Origin: Thermoplasmata archaeon
GTDB lineage: Archaea; Thermoplasmatota; SW-10-69-26; JACQPN01; JAJPHT01
Direction: 5' to 3'
Length of the DNA: 54,921 bases
Assembly: GCA_034667685.1 (NCBI GenBank)
Contig: JAXDQU010000028.1
Coordinates: 1 to 54,921 of the forward strand
Shown: positions 6,172 through 54,355 of the stretch, piece after piece
Position numbering within the stretch: position 1 is the first letter of the stretch
Layout: every line of letters begins with the position of its first letter
Translations under genes and position numbers: made by a program
Notes under the pieces: model-generated
The model's input: the letters and a program-made list of their open reading frames with translations, nothing else
Told to the model about the DNA's origin: nothing
The model's database searches: none

Positions 6172-6342
6172 ATGCCGCGGGGCGAGCCATCCTCGGACGT
6201 GCAGGACGCACGCGTTCGACGTCGGGTGGCGCTCGCCGTGGCGCTGCGCGACGCTCCCCCGGAGCGGACCATCCTCATGCTCTGCGACCTGAGCGATTTC
6301 GCCCGAAGGCTCGCGGAGGCGGCGGAACGTGCGCGGGATTGA
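6172..6342 (+). CDS. Small hypothetical helical protein (56 aa), possible antitoxin-like
   Basis: Manual ORF MPRGEPSSDVQDARVRRRVALAVALRDAPPERTILMLCDLSDFARRLAEAAERARD fills the intergenic gap. Confidence 0.45.
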   Translation: MPRGEPSSDVQDARVRRRVALAVALRDAPPERTILMLCDLSDFARRLAEAAERARD

Positions 6343-6395
6343 GGCGACGGCGACCGCCTTCGACGCGGCGTGCCGGAAGGCTGGCGTCTCCTACG

Positions 6396-6680
6396 TTAGT
6401 CCCACTCGATGACCTCGTAGGTCATGTGGTAGCGCCCCGTCTCGGGGTCCTGGCGTCCGCCCTGGATGCCCGTGTCGATGCCCACGGAGTCGTGGAGCAG
6501 GAACTGGATCTCGCTGAAGTCCTGGTCGATGCACTGCTCGGCGGGCATCGCGCGGTCGGGGAACGATAGCACGAAGCGGCCCGGCGCGTCGTAGGACTCC
6601 ACGACGATCTCCTCGCCGGCCTTGCGCTCCTTGTTGAGGCGGGCCACGTGGGCGTCCAGGACGTCGCGGGCGATCGGCAT
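6396..6680 (-). CDS. Hypothetical protein (94 aa)
   Basis: MPIARDVLDAHVARL...YEVIEWD; TGATG coupling to the upstream gene; typical codon bias. Confidence 0.8.
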   Translation of the reverse strand: MPIARDVLDAHVARLNKERKAGEEIVVESYDAPGRFVLSFPDRAMPAEQCIDQDFSEIQFLLHDSVGIDTGIQGGRQDPETGRYHMTYEVIEWD

Positions 6681-48098: not shown

Positions 48099-48791
48099 AT
48101 GGACTCGGGGGAGACCGTGCAGCAGGATGAGCTTCGGCGCACGCTGGAGGCGCTCTCCAGCCCAACGAGGCTTTGGCTTCTCGCGCGACTCGCGACGCCC
48201 GGCTTCGTCACCGGCCTGGCGAACGAGCTGGGCGTCAGCCGCCAAGCCACGCAAAAACACCTGGACGCGCTCACGGGGGCCGGGCTCGTGCAGGGGCGCC
48301 TGGCGTGGCGCGGGACCGTGCGCGCCGTGGAGTACGTCGCGAGCCCCGCGGGGATCTTCGCCTTCCGGGAGACGCTCCACGGGCTGACGGGGGAGGCCAA
48401 CACCCTCGCGTTCCCGCTGACGCCCACCCGCCCTTCCTCGCCTTCGGGCTTCGATGCGCACGGCGTCGGCCCCGGCCTCCTGCTGGTGCACGGCGACGTG
48501 CCTGGGCGCTGGTACCCGCTGGAGGGGCGCTCCGAGTGGATCGTCGGGCGCGCGGCCCAGCAGCACGTCTGCCTCGCGTACGATCCCTTCGCGAGCGCGC
48601 AGCACGCGCTGCTCCGGCGCGGCCCGGAGGGGTGGCGCATCGCGGACCTGCGCAGCCGGAACGGCACGCGCGTGAACCTCCGTCCCCTGCCGCCGGGCGG
48701 CGTGCATCCGCTCCGGCAGGGCGACCTGATCACGGTGGGCCGCAGCCACCTCATCTTCCGGGAGGGATCGTCGTCGCCTCCGCCATCGTGA
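48099..48791 (+). CDS. ArsR-type HTH plus FHA domain regulator
   Basis: LSSPTRLWLL...SRQATQKHLDAL..AGLV; FHA GR...DPFASAQHA...DLRSRNGT. Confidence 0.92.
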   Translation: MDSGETVQQDELRRTLEALSSPTRLWLLARLATPGFVTGLANELGVSRQATQKHLDALTGAGLVQGRLAWRGTVRAVEYVASPAGIFAFRETLHGLTGEANTLAFPLTPTRPSSPSGFDAHGVGPGLLLVHGDVPGRWYPLEGRSEWIVGRAAQQHVCLAYDPFASAQHALLRRGPEGWRIADLRSRNGTRVNLRPLPPGGVHPLRQGDLITVGRSHLIFREGSSSPPPS

Positions 48792-50782
48792 CGTTGAGCG
48801 GCGCCGCGAACGCGCTCCTGGGGGCGTTCCTCCTGGCGGTGGCGGGGGTCGTCGCGCGCCGCGGCACGGACCGGCGGACGCGCTGGCCCCTCGCGGCCTA
48901 CCTGGCGCTCGTGGGCGCGAACTACCTCATGGACGGCCTGCGCATCTCCGTCGTGGACGCCGGCGTTCCGGGATGGTCCCAGGCCCTCGGCCCGTTCGTC
49001 GAGGGCCATTACGCACCGCGCATCCCGCTCCTCTTCGACCCGCTCGCGCTGCTCCTCTTCGCCCTCATGACGTGGCGCCCCCGCGTCTCGCCGGGCCTCG
49101 TGGCGGCGGCCGCCCTGCCCGCGCTGGCGATCGGCGTCGCGGTCATGCTCGTGCTGCCGGCCCCGACCATCCATGCCCCGCTCTGGGACGCCTTCCTCGC
49201 CGAGCTCGTGCTCTACTACGCGTTGGCCTTCGCGCTCCTCGCGCGCACCTACCTCGCCGCCCGCAGCGCGGCCGAGCGCGACCGGCTCGGCACGCTGCTC
49301 GTGGGGTTCGGCATCGTGCTCGTGCCGCGCTTCGCGCTCCTGCACCTCGACATCGGGCTGGGCACGTACATTCCCTTCCCGCCGGGATTTCCTTCCCTGG
49401 TCACGGTCGACCTGAGCGCGCTCGTCGTCGCGTTCGCGCTCGTCGCGATCCTCCTGCTGCGGCATGCCAGCCCCGAGGCGCGCCCGCACGTGGAGCGCAC
49501 GACGATCGAGATGGGCTGGATGCTCGTCGTCGTGGCGCTGGCGTGGGCGCTCTTCGACTTCCTGCACGACGCGATCACGCTGACGTTCGGGCTGCTCTAC
49601 TCGATCCGCTGGTTCGTCTTCGGCGGGTTCCTCGCCTACGGCGGCCGCAGCGAGGGATTCCTGGGCCTGCCGGGCCGCCCCACGGCGAGGCTGCGCGCGC
49701 TCTTCACCGCGCTGCTCGCGGCGTCGGTCCTCGTCGAGCTCGTCGCCGTCGCGCAGGCGCTCCCCGGCCTGGCGCCCAGCGTCCGCCTGCTCGACGTCCT
49801 GGCGATCGCGGGCTTCGGCCTCCAGGTCTACGCGGTGCTGCGGCTCGCGCGCCCCCGCAACGCCGCCGAGGCGTCCTGGCGACGCGCCCAGATCTACCGC
49901 GCGCAGGTCCAGTTGGGCGCCTCGGAGGAGGACCTCGCCACCCTCCAGGAGCGGCTGGGCCTCTCGGCGCGCGAGGCCGGCGAGATCCGGCGCGCCGTGG
50001 CGCTGGAGCGCGACCGGGCCGCGCCGGCGCCCCACGGCGCGCTCGATCACGGCGCCATGCTCGCGGAGCGTTACGAGGTGGGCGCGCTCCTGGGCGCTGG
50101 GTCGTTCGGCCTGGTCCACGAGGCGCGCGACCGGCTCACCGGCGAGCGCGTCGTGCTCAAGGAGCTCAACCTGCGCTGGCGCGCCGACGCCGAGGCGCTC
50201 GGGCGGTTCCGCCGCGAGATCGAGACGGCGCTGCGCGTCGAGCACCCGAACCTCGTCGCCTTCCGCGCGCTGGAGAGCGCGGGCGACGCGAGCGTCCTCG
50301 TCCTGGCCCACGTCGAGGGGGAGACGCTCGCGGCGCGCCTCGCGCGCGGTCCGCTGACGCCCGCCGAGTCGGCGCAGGTCGCGCGCGACGTGCTCGCGGG
50401 CCTCTCCGTGCTCCACCGCCACGGCATCGTCCACCGCGACGTGAAGCCCGAGAACGTGATGCTCCAGCCCGACGGCCGCGCCGTGCTGCTCGACTTCGGC
50501 TGCGCGACGGACCCCGTCTCTTCGGGCGCGACGCAGGCGGCGCTCCAGCCGGGCACGCCCGAGTACATGAGCCCGGAGCAGGCGCGCGGCGAGGCCGTCT
50601 CGCCCGCGAGCGATCTCTACGCCGTGGGCGTGGTGCTCTGGGAGGCGCTCAGCGGCGCCCGCCCGCCGGGCCGCGCTCCTTCCTCCCCGTGGCGCGTCAC
50701 CCTGCTGCGCGCCCTCGACCCGGACCCCGCCCTGCGTTGGCCCGACGCCGAAGCGTTCCGCGCGGCGCTGCCCGTGGCGTGA
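48788..50782 (+). CDS. Multi-pass membrane Hanks-type Ser/Thr protein kinase
   Basis: About 11 hydrophobic segments, then GAGSFG, VVLKE, HRDVKPEN, DFG, GTPEYMSPE, SDLYAVG; GTGA overlap with the FHA gene. Confidence 0.92.
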   Translation: MTLSGAANALLGAFLLAVAGVVARRGTDRRTRWPLAAYLALVGANYLMDGLRISVVDAGVPGWSQALGPFVEGHYAPRIPLLFDPLALLLFALMTWRPRVSPGLVAAAALPALAIGVAVMLVLPAPTIHAPLWDAFLAELVLYYALAFALLARTYLAARSAAERDRLGTLLVGFGIVLVPRFALLHLDIGLGTYIPFPPGFPSLVTVDLSALVVAFALVAILLLRHASPEARPHVERTTIEMGWMLVVVALAWALFDFLHDAITLTFGLLYSIRWFVFGGFLAYGGRSEGFLGLPGRPTARLRALFTALLAASVLVELVAVAQALPGLAPSVRLLDVLAIAGFGLQVYAVLRLARPRNAAEASWRRAQIYRAQVQLGASEEDLATLQERLGLSAREAGEIRRAVALERDRAAPAPHGALDHGAMLAERYEVGALLGAGSFGLVHEARDRLTGERVVLKELNLRWRADAEALGRFRREIETALRVEHPNLVAFRALESAGDASVLVLAHVEGETLAARLARGPLTPAESAQVARDVLAGLSVLHRHGIVHRDVKPENVMLQPDGRAVLLDFGCATDPVSSGATQAALQPGTPEYMSPEQARGEAVSPASDLYAVGVVLWEALSGARPPGRAPSSPWRVTLLRALDPDPALRWPDAEAFRAALPVA

Positions 50783-51395: not shown

Positions 51396-51617
51396 TCAGT
51401 CCGTCTTTTTCGAGGCCGCGTAGACGCCCAGCGCCAGCGCGGCCACCAGCGCGCCCAGCCCCACGAGCTGCTGGAAGCGCGCCTCCAACGGATTCCCGTC
51501 GGCGTCCGGCGCGCCCGCCCACGCGTCGAGCACCGGCGCGAGCATGAGACGCACCGCGGCGAGGATCAGGACCGCGCACCCCAGGATGGCGAGCACGCGC
51601 CACGCGTCCAGCTTCAT
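51396..51617 (-). CDS. Small 2-TM membrane protein
   Basis: Two hydrophobic helices, MKLDAWRVLAILG.... Confidence 0.65.
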   Translation of the reverse strand: MKLDAWRVLAILGCAVLILAAVRLMLAPVLDAWAGAPDADGNPLEARFQQLVGLGALVAALALGVYAASKKTD

Positions 51618-51644
51618 CGGACGGGCTTCGGCGCGCGCCACGGA

Positions 51645-51860
51645 AAAGACGCTCGGTTTCGGGATGAAAGGGATTCCTCTCCAGGGGCGGAACAGGACAG
51701 GATGCCTGCGGCGCTTGCGCGTCGCGGGGCGGTGGTGGGATTTCCCTGGAGAGGGGGGAAGCGTCGAAACGCTCGCGGCAGACCCACGAGGTCGGCACCG
51801 GCCAGGGAGCCCCGAAGGGCCCGTCGCGAACCAGTCTCCAACGCGCTTCGTTCTTCCTTG
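51645..51860 (-). ncRNA. Candidate ~210-nt structured RNA with its own TATA box
   Basis: TTGATATAG at 51890-51882; stems with cUUCGg and GCAA tetraloops; 11-bp CCTCTCCAGGG/CCCTGGAGAGG; G-U pairs favour the minus strand. Confidence 0.55.
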
Positions 51861-52026
51861 AGACGAAGGACGCTGGGCGCACTATATCAAGTTGCGGAAC
51901 TCGCGACGGGCAGGCGCGATTGCGAAGGCTTATCCGACATTTTCCTCGGGGGCGGCGTGGCCTCCCATGCATGGCGAGCCAGGTCGGGCCTTCCCGCACG
52001 AGGTCCATGCCGCGCCGGCGCGATGG

Positions 52027-52098
52027 GCCGCCACCACGCCATCACGCCGGCCGGGAAATCCACGGGTTGGCGTGTTGGCGTCATGGCGTGTTGGCGGC
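52027..52098. repeat. Palindrome built from 8-nt ACGCCAnn units (copy 2)
   Basis: GCCACCAC GCCATCAC GCC...TTGGCGTG TTGGCGTC ATGGCGTG TTGGCGGC. Confidence 0.8.
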
Positions 52099-52123
52099 AG
52101 GGCGAAGCCCGATCTCTTGGGTT

Positions 52124-53434
52124 CTACCTCCACGTCGTCGCCGCGCTCGTGTACGCGACGCCGCCCACGGTGGCGGTGAACGTCACCTGCGCGCCGCTCG
52201 CGACGTGCGTGCTGAGGGCCCACGTGCCCCACGAGGTGGCGCGCAGCGCGATGGGCGCTCCGCCGTCGATGGTCGCGCTCACCGCGCTGGGCGAGCCGCT
52301 GACCTTGACCTCGACCCACCAGGTGTTGACGTTGGGGCTCACGGCGAACGTGGGCGCGTTGGCGGTCGGGATCGGAGCCGGAGCTGGAGCCGGCGCGGGT
52401 GGGGCGGCGCCGAGCCACGCGTAGGTCGGGCTCGCGACGGCCGCGCCGTTGACGATGGCGGTGAAGCTCACCTGGCTTCCGGCGGGCGCGTGGACGCTCG
52501 CGGCCCACGTGCCCCAGCTCTCGTGCGTGAGCGGGACGGGCGCGCCGCCGTTCACGATCGCGTTGACCGCGCTCGGGCCGCCCGAAACGCTCACCTCGAT
52601 CCACCATGCGTTCACGTTCGGGGAGAGCGTGAACGTCGTTGGCGAGGGCGAGGGAAGAGGCGACGGCGCGGGGGCGGGCGGGGGCGTCGTCGTCCCGCCG
52701 CTCGCGGGCCACGTGTAGTCGTTGAGCACCGCGGGCTTGTAGACCGCGACGTACTTGTCGTAGAGGCAGAGGTAGTCGCAGTTGTTCGGGTCGTACTTCT
52801 GGTACTCGCCCTTGTTCCAGTGGAATGCCACGGCGCGGAGCACCTGCTCCGTCGTGAAGCTGGGGTACGTCTTCTGGATCACGAGGAAATCGGGCAGGAC
52901 CTCCTCGGTGACGAAGCGGTCCAGGTTCTGCTGCGGGTCGAAGGGGTTGGAGAGCGGCGTGACGGGGCGAGGCGGCGCGATGCTGCCGTAGATGCCCTTG
53001 CCGAGCATCGTGGGCGCGCTGCCCGAGTTGCCCGGGTACGTCATGCCCTCGTGCGTCCAGCCCGTGAGCTGCGTCAGGCCGCAGCCGTGGGGCAGGTGGT
53101 CGCTCGTGGGCCAGAAGGAGGAGAGGGGCTTGTTCCAACCTCCCGCGCCGTCGTTGTAGTTGCAGAACGTGGCGCTGAACGTGGACTCCCGGTGCTCCAC
53201 CGAGTAGAGGAACCATCGCAACGTCTTGGCGTCGAGGCCGGGGACGGCGTTGGCGTAGGCCTGCGCGGTGGTGAGGGTCGCGGTCTGGACCGCGGCGTTG
53301 GTCAGTTGAGGCGGCTGGTACGTCGTCGCGGCCTGGGCGCTGGGCGTCACGAGGACGGCCAGGCAAGAAGCGAGCAGCAGGCTGCCCGCCACCCAAGCGA
53401 AGGACGACTGTTGGCGCGTCTTGAGGCGTGCCAT
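52124..53434 (-). CDS. Secreted lysozyme-like (SLT/GH23-like) protein with two expansin-like C-terminal repeats
   Basis: Signal ending AQA; RESTF, GLTQL, FDPQQNL, HWNKG; Pro linkers; 2x NVNxWW..V.VSG...SWGTW...QVxFTA. Confidence 0.75.
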   Translation of the reverse strand: MARLKTRQQSSFAWVAGSLLLASCLAVLVTPSAQAATTYQPPQLTNAAVQTATLTTAQAYANAVPGLDAKTLRWFLYSVEHRESTFSATFCNYNDGAGGWNKPLSSFWPTSDHLPHGCGLTQLTGWTHEGMTYPGNSGSAPTMLGKGIYGSIAPPRPVTPLSNPFDPQQNLDRFVTEEVLPDFLVIQKTYPSFTTEQVLRAVAFHWNKGEYQKYDPNNCDYLCLYDKYVAVYKPAVLNDYTWPASGGTTTPPPAPAPSPLPSPSPTTFTLSPNVNAWWIEVSVSGGPSAVNAIVNGGAPVPLTHESWGTWAASVHAPAGSQVSFTAIVNGAAVASPTYAWLGAAPPAPAPAPAPIPTANAPTFAVSPNVNTWWVEVKVSGSPSAVSATIDGGAPIALRATSWGTWALSTHVASGAQVTFTATVGGVAYTSAATTWR

Positions 53435-53602
53435 GGGGTCCGCTCGACTCCAAGCGCTTGGTCAAGCAGGCATCCGCCAGTCCGCCTGTCCGCCAAGTCC
53501 GCGCAAGCGACGAAGCGCGCCCGCACGGAGACGGGATCGCCCCCAACATGCCAGCGATCGAAGCCTTGCGCCGCGGCGCCCTCCCGCCCGCGGAGAGCTC
53601 CC

Positions 53603-54355
53603 ATGGCCAAGTGCCCCGTCGATTCTGCGTCCACCGCGTTCGTCCCGCCCGAGGCCGTCTTCGACAAGCGCGCGGGAAACAAGATCGTCGTGACGAAGGA
53701 CGGACCCTACGTCGTGACGGGCGAGGTCCCCCTGCGCGTGCAGACCATCACGCCCAACGCAGAGGGCTTCTCGTGGGACTGGGTGAAGGGCCGGGCCTTC
53801 GACGTGGGGAGCAGGTACGCGCTCTGCCGCTGCGGGCTCTCGGGCGCCAAGCCCTTCTGCGACGGCAGCCACACGAAGGCGCGCTTCGACGGCACGGAGC
53901 GCGCGACGCGCCGGCCCTACGCGCGGCAGGCCGAGACGATCCGCGGGCCGCAGTTGGACCTGGAAGACGCCGAGTCGCTCTGCGCCTTCGCCCGGTTCTG
54001 CGACCCGGCCGGCAAGATCTGGCGCCTCGCCGCCGAGGGCACGACGCCGGAGGCGCGCGCGTTGGCGATCCGCGAGGCGAACCACTGCCCCGCGGGCCGG
54101 CTCGTCGTGCTCGACAAGGCGACGCACAAGCCCTTCGAGGAACCGCGCCCCCAGGAGATCGGCGTCGTCGAGGACCCCGCGCTGGGCGTGAGCGGCCCGC
54201 TCTGGGTGCAGGGCGGCATCCCCATCGAGAGCGCGGACGGCAAGCGCTACGAGGTGCGCAACCGCGTCACGCTGTGCCGCTGCGGCGCCTCGGCCAACAT
54301 GCCCTTCTGCAACGGGAGCCACGCGACGGTCCAGTTTCAGGATGGGATCGGCTAA
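53603..54355 (+). CDS. CDGSH iron-sulfur protein (two CDGSH plus central Cys domain)
   Basis: LCRCGLSGAKPFCDGSH, CAFARFC...CPAG, LCRCGASANMPFCNGSH. Confidence 0.92.
   Translation: MAKCPVDSASTAFVPPEAVFDKRAGNKIVVTKDGPYVVTGEVPLRVQTITPNAEGFSWDWVKGRAFDVGSRYALCRCGLSGAKPFCDGSHTKARFDGTERATRRPYARQAETIRGPQLDLEDAESLCAFARFCDPAGKIWRLAAEGTTPEARALAIREANHCPAGRLVVLDKATHKPFEEPRPQEIGVVEDPALGVSGPLWVQGGIPIESADGKRYEVRNRVTLCRCGASANMPFCNGSHATVQFQDGIG

Follow-up and report, generated by a model that had tools for sequence, protein, structure and literature searches.

Homologues of peptidoglycan hydrolases have been reported in 175 of 3,706 archaeal genomes, with Thermoplasmatota prominent among the carriers, and killing of bacteria by such archaeal enzymes has been shown experimentally, according to the sections of the survey used here (Strock et al., 2025, PLoS Biol, PMC12352652). 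Extracellular murein-transglycosylase-like proteins have also been described in DPANN archaea (Woese- and Pacearchaeota), in the part of that study cited here (10.1101/2021.01.12.426361). The concept of an archaeal peptidoglycan hydrolase is already known, and an earlier annotation of the present locus (hereafter the original prediction) made these enzymes out to be more unusual among archaea than such counts suggest. The locus is a gene on a 54,921-nucleotide contig of a Thermoplasmata archaeon (contig JAXDQU010000028.1 of assembly GCA_034667685.1, here called the window), encoding a protein of 436 amino acids (aa) in which a lysozyme-like domain is followed by two expansin-type repeats. Distinctive of the present case are the clade to which the protein belongs, which is invisible to Pfam, an insertion in its catalytic domain that carries invariant Asp and His, and the expansin-type binding module. 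As judged on titles and abstract openings, neither an SLT-CBM63 fusion nor a description of this clade was found in the literature.

Our leading interpretation, drawn from sequence comparison and modelled structure and held with about as much doubt as confidence, is that the protein would be a secreted peptidoglycan-cleaving enzyme. The gene and its parts are as follows.

52124..53434, minus strand: whole coding sequence, 436 aa plus stop codon, with an ATG start (ORF listing).
53330..53434, minus strand: residues 1-35, predicted Sec-type signal peptide (MARLKTRQQSS, hydrophobic core, TPSAQA/A), from reading of the sequence.
52700..53329, minus strand: residues 36-245, lysozyme/lytic-transglycosylase-like putative catalytic domain (model, fold search, Pfam SLT on distant homologues).
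53183..53188, minus strand: E83-S84, candidate catalytic acid and the next Ser, invariant in the family and aligned by profile to ESSFNP of MltC.
53081..53164, minus strand: insertion of about 28 aa, residues 91-118, between E-S and GLTQ (alignment).
53069..53080, minus strand: G119-L-T-Q122, the GLxQ motif, with G and L invariant in 27 sequences.
52925..52939, minus strand: D166-P-Q-Q-N170, the DPxxN motif, with N170 invariant and D166 and Q169 at least 90% conserved (27 sequences).
52808..52819, minus strand: W206-N-K-G209, equivalent of the SLT 'YNxG', with W and G invariant and N at least 90% conserved (27 sequences).
52646..52699, minus strand: linker 1, residues 246-263, rich in Pro/Thr/Ala/Ser (sequence; pLDDT <50).
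52409..52645, minus strand: repeat 1, residues 264-342, Expansin_C/CBM63-like beta-sandwich (homology and fold).
52364..52408, minus strand: linker 2, residues 343-357, rich in Pro/Ala (sequence; pLDDT <50).
52127..52363, minus strand: repeat 2, residues 358-436, Expansin_C/CBM63-like beta-sandwich (homology and fold).

The window has a G+C content of 64-76% and many overlapping open reading frames (ORFs) are listed in it. The 436-aa frame was taken as real among them because its G+C content at third codon positions (GC3) reaches 0.96 over the catalytic part and 0.94 over the repeats, and because homologues are found at 41-78% identity. The assembly (G000; 3.48 Mb in 124 contigs, 99% complete, the window being contig C28) probably belongs to an archaeon, as had been supposed: a TFE gene (PF02002) lies close by and two homologues of the protein are named 'Thermoplasmatota archaeon' at NCBI. 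A basic N-terminus, a hydrophobic stretch and an AQA/A site predict secretion by way of a Sec signal peptide, and the hydrophobic N-terminus and an A-x-A-like site are retained in the family alignment. A lipoprotein reading of L-A-S-C24 was ruled out, as Cys24 is not conserved across the family.

A catalytic Glu-Ser at a helix end, followed in order by GLxQ, DPxxN and (Y/W)NxG, makes up the SLT-type set, which is typical of enzymes acting on N-acetylated sugars. The four motifs named by the original prediction, E83-S84, GLTQ, DPQQN and WNKG, are each present once and in that order. Helix 34-49 of the domain model ends at model residue 49, which is S84, so that E-S sits at the C-terminal end of the helix. 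H81, R82, E83, S84, G117, C118, G119, Q122, D166, Q169, N170, W206 and G209 are invariant in a family alignment of 13 sequences. When the alignment is widened to 27 sequences (window residues 36-250 and 26 homologues, distant relatives included), R-E-S, the G-L of GLTQ, N170, R173, F174, A203, W206, G209, Y221 and Y225 either do not vary or keep a conservation of 90% or more. The insertion is bounded by C91 and C118, both invariant, and carries D95, D112 and H116, which are invariant in the clade of the window protein; it is present in that clade and in a Peregrinibacteria/DPANN clade and absent from a short SLT-like clade. The other two of the four Cys in residues 36-245, C219 and C223, are at least 90% conserved in the family.

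The assignment to a family was reached through relatives. Pfam gathering thresholds are 21.3 bits for SLT (PF01464) and 24.6 bits for Expansin_C (PF01357). Ten of 17 homologues scanned against Pfam at E <=5 have SLT rows, four of them above threshold (P0105, 27.5 bits; P0110, 24.1; P0111, 27.2; P0129, 25.4), and seven have none. The program phmmer connects the window protein to these four (E 1.2e-21 to 9e-19), and all of them stand in one tree with its clade. By such transitive homology the catalytic domain is classed as an SLT member, the protein itself lying below the Pfam threshold. A profile of the 27-sequence alignment, searched against PDB sequences at E <=10, returned two matches only, both to MltC (E 0.016 and 0.11), and the alignment falls on the E-S motif (MltC ...ESSFNP...), whose Glu we take to be the catalytic residue of MltC. 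Chains of GH124 are absent from the PDB sequence matches at E <=10, for the single protein and for the 27-sequence profile; the whole protein retrieved from the PDB sequences low-complexity noise alone (E >=0.16; LH1 alpha, and EBNA1 on the Pro/Ala linker). The SLT set holds 11 of the 30 feature hits in the ESM Atlas. According to its Methods, the archaeal survey required a catalytic and a wall-binding domain, one of each and both as defined by Pfam (PMC12352652); a Pfam-based survey of the kind described there would miss the present protein because neither domain type is present in it at the Pfam level.

Structural modelling leads to the same superfamily. The AlphaFold model of the N-domain alone, made with the 27-sequence alignment, has a pLDDT of 91.4 and a pTM of 0.90. 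It was compared with 48,161 representative chains by a second fold search (VIA) that is independent of Foldseek, and all 18 chains at Z >=8 are lysozyme-like enzymes. MltF scored Z 11.9 (rmsd 2.6, 137 aligned) in the search and 12.0 (rmsd 2.7, 140 aligned) on a second look, and MltC 9.8 and 11.0, respectively. The lytic transglycosylase 5o2n reached 10.2, a g-type lysozyme 10.1 in the search and 10.5-10.7 on the second look (16-20% identity), fungal muramidases 9.6 and a GH23 chitinase 9.6-10.0. Foldseek listed g-type lysozymes, MltE, MltF and the GH23 chitinase after GH124, which is discussed below. A library of viral structures gave weak matches only (E >=0.02), the named ones being phage lytic transglycosylases and LT_GEWL proteins. 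The claim of a lysozyme-like fold in the original prediction thus stands, with the N-domain model matching MltF, MltC and g-type lysozymes, and we regard a lysozyme/SLT-like fold of the modelled N-domain as settled. A Foldseek search with the full-length model (pLDDT 67.6) returned only tandem Ig/FnIII-type chains at TM <=0.16; these matches were discounted as an artefact, since the model contains two beta-sandwiches joined by a floppy linker.

The two Trp-rich repeats, also foreseen, measure 79 aa each. In both of them N-x-W-W (residues 275 and 370) precedes SWGTW (residues 306 and 401), and the family alignment shows conservation of WW and SWGxW. Their resemblance is not due to chance, as they share 58% identity over 74 aa (BLASTP E 2e-29). 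Against PF01357 they give no match at E <=10, and a search of the whole genome with this model yielded three sub-threshold matches, none in the lysozyme-like gene and one (E 0.16) in a paralogous repeat on contig C6. Among 71 scanned homologues, 16 match Expansin_C at E <=0.001 and 12 of these reach the threshold of 24.6 bits, the best scores being those of P0053 (55.4 bits) and P0063 (55.5 bits). The window repeat aligns by BLASTP to residues 350-428 of P0053 (46% identity, E 1e-16), where Pfam places Expansin_C at 353-422, and to residues 585-646 of P0063, where Pfam places it at 585-650. The repeats have a pLDDT of about 80-93 in the full-length model. Their fold matches domain 2 of the Clavibacter expansin (Z 9.6, rmsd 2.5, 80 aligned, 19% identity), followed among other expansins by Phl p 1 (Z 9.2) and those of Talaromyces (9.1) and Streptomyces (8.1) and cotton EXLA1 (7.9); it ties with the beta-1,3-glucan-binding CBM56 (Z 9.6, 9.3 and 8.6). 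Through relatives that pass PF01357 and through the modelled fold, the repeats are identified as CBM63-type modules, which bears out the likeness to expansin domain 2 that had been proposed. Lacking domain 1, the protein does not count as an expansin: the N-domain is lysozyme-like, and Pfam at E <=10 gave no DPBB or GH45-like expansin domain 1.

Relatives of the protein are numerous. A word-indexed search found 19 at E <=1e-3 and an exhaustive phmmer search 329, among them 218 at E <=1e-10 and 27 at E <=1e-30; the 150 top-ranking of the 329 were covered individually. Among 165 collected proteins the repeat occurs in 145 (1-8 copies), an N-domain match in 35 and both in 15. An unrooted maximum-likelihood tree was built from 36 N-domains, after 8 of 44 HMM hits had been dropped as fragments (P0019, P0022, P0026, P0049, P0074, P0122 and two pieces of locus L015), and shows three well-supported groups. 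The window protein belongs to a clade of 14 proteins with P0021 as sister (support 100/100), 13 of which have the catalytic domain followed by 1, 2 or 7 repeats. The Pfam SLT-passing proteins fall in a 'short' clade with canonical spacing from E-S to GLxQ, as does a SAR202 (Chloroflexota) genome. The third clade has Peregrinibacteria/Peribacteria at its base and contains a metagenome-assembled genome (MAG) of Woesearchaeota and two MAGs labelled 'Methanosarcinales'. SLH domains begin two bacterial members, P0058 and the 550-aa protein of locus L014, and the homologues at L012 and L013 are flanked by SLH proteins; apart from these SLH proteins, the neighbourhoods of eight homologous loci are heterogeneous.

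The two parts of the protein differ in distribution. Of 301 genomes sampled across the phylum, only that of the window carries the catalytic domain, which is absent from 4 other genomes of the same genus and 4 others of the same family (72-100% complete). The phylum of a Peregrinibacteria carrier gave a similar picture, with 2 of 301 genomes positive, namely the centre genome and one weak match (E 8e-4). The repeat occurs in 26 of the 301 genomes of the window's phylum, with up to 15 matches per genome, and in 8/8 other genomes of the same family, 4/6 others of the same order and 6/6 genomes of a sister family in the class. In G000 it is found on 8 ORFs, where it is combined with an FG-GAP propeller, CBM60 plus three PKD domains, a PF04185 phosphoesterase or DUF4015, three ORFs having no family. 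Among its partners in metagenome proteins are DUF4015, peptidases M10 and S8, metallophosphoesterases, a GH72/GH2-like barrel, PKD, SBBP and FG-GAP. Recent transfer of the gene from low-GC Peregrinibacteria or DPANN was ruled out, as its G+C content of 0.70 is close to the 0.71 of the genome and its GC3 is as high as given above. A rare SLT-like domain probably became fused to a module already in the lineage's use, and this would not be a recent event. Since the tree is unrooted, no donor or direction of transfer can be named.

Some relatives have features of their own. P0020 (849 aa) has seven back-to-back repeats after the catalytic domain, and repeat number ranges from 0 to 7 within the window's clade. 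P0006 and P0011 (ACYDDF_13890 and ACYDDF_13885, on a 31,974-bp contig) are apparently adjacent paralogues of the lysozyme-like gene in another Thermoplasmatota MAG, which points to tandem duplication within the clade; one of the two has a long Thr/Ser-rich linker. The Peregrinibacteria/DPANN-type homologues of the 'Methanosarcinales' MAGs (L011 and L017) lie on contigs of 38% and 29% G+C, and L017 is archaeal by its nearby eIF2-gamma gene, while the label 'Methanosarcinales' looks doubtful. In a Peribacteria MAG (L015) the homologue is split, with HMM positions 9-89 and 93-194 on separate ORFs (6202-6516 and the upstream frame), which suggests a frameshift or sequencing error. Two repeat-bearing proteins of the window genome, L024 (G000:C9:6360-7865) and L025 (G000:C97:20682-23363), share an N-terminal domain of about 300 aa with the motif WYYWGD and no Pfam match, followed in L025 by CBM60 and three PKD domains. 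This shared domain may be an undescribed glycoside hydrolase family.

Among 22 sequencing runs that matched sampled words of the lysozyme-like gene, two soil metagenomes hold all of them and are a possible source, one soil run holds a fraction of 0.34 and the rest hold 0.11 or less. Two DNA runs, one labelled soil and one rhizosphere, carry relatives, and habitats are named here from such labelled DNA runs only; a contig of 913 nt, for example, shows 51 differences across 52757-53503. In two root RNA libraries that come from a single study, assembled contigs of 157-353 nt are 92-96% identical over 52884-53503.

From these data we propose that a soil Thermoplasmata-type archaeon may secrete a modular glycan-cleaving enzyme from which the signal peptide is removed. 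In its divergent SLT/GH23-like domain, the proton donor on the beta-1,4 bond between N-acetylated sugars would be Glu83, placed where the central helix ends, and the chemistry would be either that of a lytic transglycosylase (1,6-anhydro product) or that of a hydrolytic muramidase. With their exposed Trp, the two CBM63-like modules, which flexible Pro/Ala linkers connect, would keep the enzyme attached to insoluble polysaccharide. The most likely substrate would be the glycan strand of bacterial peptidoglycan, which is favoured by the SLT motif set, by Pfam and PDB sequence links that lead only to transglycosylases, by the SLH context in bacteria and by published precedent. Near-invariance of E-S and the three other motifs across three deep clades is the pattern expected of an active enzyme. 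Bacteria nearby could have their walls lysed or stripped, whether this serves antagonism or gives the archaeon's other secreted hydrolases access to cells, dead or living. The 99% complete genome has no recognisable AnmK, no MurQ above cut-off and no GH20, GH18 or GH5, other cellulase and chitinase families not having been searched. This argues against a dedicated one-sugar uptake pathway and is more in keeping with lysis or access than with the scavenging of sugars.

Several observations weigh against a peptidoglycan-cleaving enzyme. The whole protein has no match in Pfam and NCBIfam at E <=10 or in PHROGs at E <=0.01; a PF01464 profile search of the whole genome at E <=1 found none, the same model matching 8 of 14 control genomes; and the Gln of GLxQ is replaced by Lys in 3 of the 27 aligned homologues. 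Foldseek with the N-domain model found nothing in the PDB at E <=0.001, and its three best rows there are GH124 cellulase (E 0.035-0.093, TM 0.45-0.53). In VIA this cellulase comes within about 1 Z of the transglycosylases (Z 10.9, rmsd 4.0, 17% identity), with the longest alignment of all (162 residues, against 137-140 for MltF and MltC). As transglycosylases, lysozymes, chitinase and cellulase all fall within about 2 Z, the fold leaves the substrate unchosen. CBM63 modules of characterised expansins bind cellulose, and the repeat is not peptidoglycan-specific, since it is found on proteins of the same genome with CBM60 (xylan-binding), DUF4015 (putative glycosidase), phosphoesterase and FG-GAP. 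Finally, the root RNA-library contigs may be DNA carry-over, because one of them crosses the divergent intergenic region into the upstream CDGSH gene; they are weak evidence of transcription.

The fold results bring up an alternative that we take seriously but rather doubt, in which the lysozyme-fold domain would cleave another polymer, either cellulose or beta-glucan in the manner of the GH124 enzyme CtCel124, or chitin in the manner of the GH23 chitinase of Ralstonia sp. A-471. In that case the role of the CBM63-like modules would be to direct the enzyme to cell-wall material of plants or fungi in soil or rhizosphere. The rank of GH124 in both fold searches, the Z of the GH23 chitinase and the tie of the Expansin_C-like repeats with CBM56 speak for it, as do sister repeat proteins with CBM60, DUF4015 or GH72/GH2-like barrels and the labels, soil and rhizosphere metagenomes, of the DNA runs that hold the gene or near relatives. 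However, sequence and profile searches of the PDB found no GH124 and returned MltC as the one enzyme, all four motifs are of SLT type as we understand such motifs, relatives pass Pfam SLT, the bacterial relatives are SLH-anchored wall proteins, and the genome offers no GH18, GH20 or GH5 partners among the families searched. The original prediction, a muramidase or a chitin-active enzyme, was reasonable in this respect but did not list the GH124-type, cellulase-like rival raised by the fold search. A more specific version, which we think rather unlikely, is that the protein would be an archaeal counterpart of expansins and GH124 and not antibacterial, its lysozyme-fold domain cutting or loosening cellulose-type polymers of plant or fungal walls to which CBM63 delivers it. 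It would then belong to a set of tools shared across the lineage, a single expansin-type module fixing the proteases, phosphoesterases and glycosidases of soil and rhizosphere Thermoplasmata to polysaccharide surfaces. If this were true, wall-less archaea would be direct actors on plant or fungal cell-wall material.

The wide use of the repeat invites another explanation: the enzyme would act on the archaeon's own or another archaeal surface or matrix (S-layer glycans, glycocalyx, exopolysaccharide), and the repeats would be a lineage-wide anchor on the producer surface instead of a module for binding the target. The repeat is indeed present on at least 8 ORFs of the window genome with unrelated catalytic parts, it occurs in all 8 other genomes of the same family and all 6 of the sister family, often in many copies per genome, and its metagenome partners (M10 and S8 proteases, metallophosphoesterases, FG-GAP) suit a general anchor. 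Its catalytic companion, present in a single genome of the phylum sample and in 0/8 other genomes of the same family, is by that token not needed for envelope upkeep, and we know of no polymer with GlcNAc-MurNAc-like bonds in Thermoplasmata envelopes; we consider the explanation improbable. Very improbable, in our view, is a non-catalytic binding or loosening protein of expansin type in which the lysozyme-like domain takes the place of expansin domain 1. It would account for the expansin-like two-part layout, a groove domain plus a CBM63-like module, and for the lack of a direct match to any catalytic family model, but not for a candidate Glu-Ser and three further motifs that are invariant or nearly so across three deep clades.

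The surroundings of the lysozyme-like gene contain the following features.

53602-54355 (approximate), plus strand: divergent upstream neighbour with two CDGSH iron-sulfur domains and Fer4_19, about 167 bp from the lysozyme-like gene.
51642-52123: downstream stretch of 480 bp with no convincing ORF and no Rfam match.
51396-51641, minus strand: 81-aa ORF that separates the lysozyme-like gene from TFE; it contains two hydrophobic stretches and matches no Pfam family.
Beyond the 81-aa ORF, downstream: archaeal TFE (PF02002).
48173-50782, plus strand: membrane-anchored Ser/Thr kinase, with a C-terminal PF00069 (E 4e-41) after a large multi-pass hydrophobic region.

The true start of the kinase ORF is probably further in, because the listed TTG start gives an implausible Arg/Pro-rich leader. 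A 21-nt imperfect palindrome lies at 51953-51986 in the downstream stretch, which also holds an AT-richer patch, TTGATATAG (minus strand, near 51882-51890), that could be the promoter of the small downstream gene. Neither tRNA genes nor Rfam families were found within the window. A mobile element or virus context was rejected, as there is no sign of a provirus, conjugative element, plasmid or secretion system beside the gene, whose neighbours are TFE, CDGSH and the kinase. The CDGSH neighbour is shared by 1 of 5 close relatives (G108, 76% identity), where neither TFE nor the other neighbours accompany it. Synteny was set aside as evidence of insertion, because this neighbour recurs in G108 alone and no empty-site comparison is possible.

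Among described enzymes, the GH23 family-1 lytic transglycosylases (MltF, MltC, MltE, Slt70) are the closest counterparts of the catalytic domain. They share its fold (Z 12.0 for MltF, 11.0 for MltC and about 10 for MltE), the Glu-Ser at the end of the central helix, and GLxQ, DPxxN and xNxG in the same order. In contrast to them, the window protein misses the Pfam model, has the Cys-bounded insertion of about 28 aa, replaces the Tyr of 'YNxG' by Trp, carries a CBM63-like binding module and comes from an archaeal host without murein of its own. The insertion, with its invariant Asp and His, may be a sign that chemistry or substrate has changed within the SLT superfamily. The g-type lysozymes are alike in fold (Z 10.5-10.7) and have the highest structure-based identity (16-20%), but show no match at the sequence level; D95 and D112, which follow the candidate catalytic Glu, presumably recall Asp residues of these lysozymes. 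The GH23 chitinase of Ralstonia sp. A-471 is likewise similar in fold and unmatched in sequence. CtCel124 of Clostridium (Ruminiclostridium) thermocellum also joins a lysozyme fold to non-catalytic modules, but acts on a plant polymer, superposes at an rmsd of 4.0 Å compared to 2.6-2.9 Å for MltF and MltC, and gave no sequence match at E <=10 in the PDB searches with the window protein, which keeps the SLT motifs.

The repeats resemble expansin domain 2/CBM63 (Clavibacter, Bacillus EXLX1, Phl p 1) in being beta-sandwiches of about 80 aa with N-x-W-W and S-W-G-x-W. They differ from expansins in that modules of this type stand in tandem (1 to 7 or more copies) on many kinds of enzyme, and in that the window protein is without domain 1. 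As a class-wide module, they offer a way into the question of how archaea without walls retain their exoenzymes on insoluble substrates. The protein is also an example of how such enzymes may originate, with a rare and patchy catalytic domain (1/301) joined to a module that was already on the secreted enzymes of the host lineage (26/301).

With the archaeal peptidoglycan hydrolases (Strock et al., 2025, PLoS Biol, PMC12352652, and the GH25 muramidase of Aciduliprofundum boonei cited there) the window protein has in common a predicted secreted, bacterial-type wall-cleaving domain, a chimeric architecture and a patchy distribution, as far as the sections used here describe them. A patchily distributed secreted domain of this bacterial type is equally a feature of the murein-transglycosylase-like proteins of DPANN archaea, in the part of that work cited here (10.1101/2021.01.12.426361). 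If the enzyme does lyse bacteria, a soil Thermoplasmata lineage and a Pfam-invisible clade would join the short list of archaeal anti-wall weapons, and domain-based surveys would be undercounting such enzymes. Compared with the hydrolases treated in those sections of PMC12352652, the window protein is set apart by a binding module that is not a classical peptidoglycan-binding domain.

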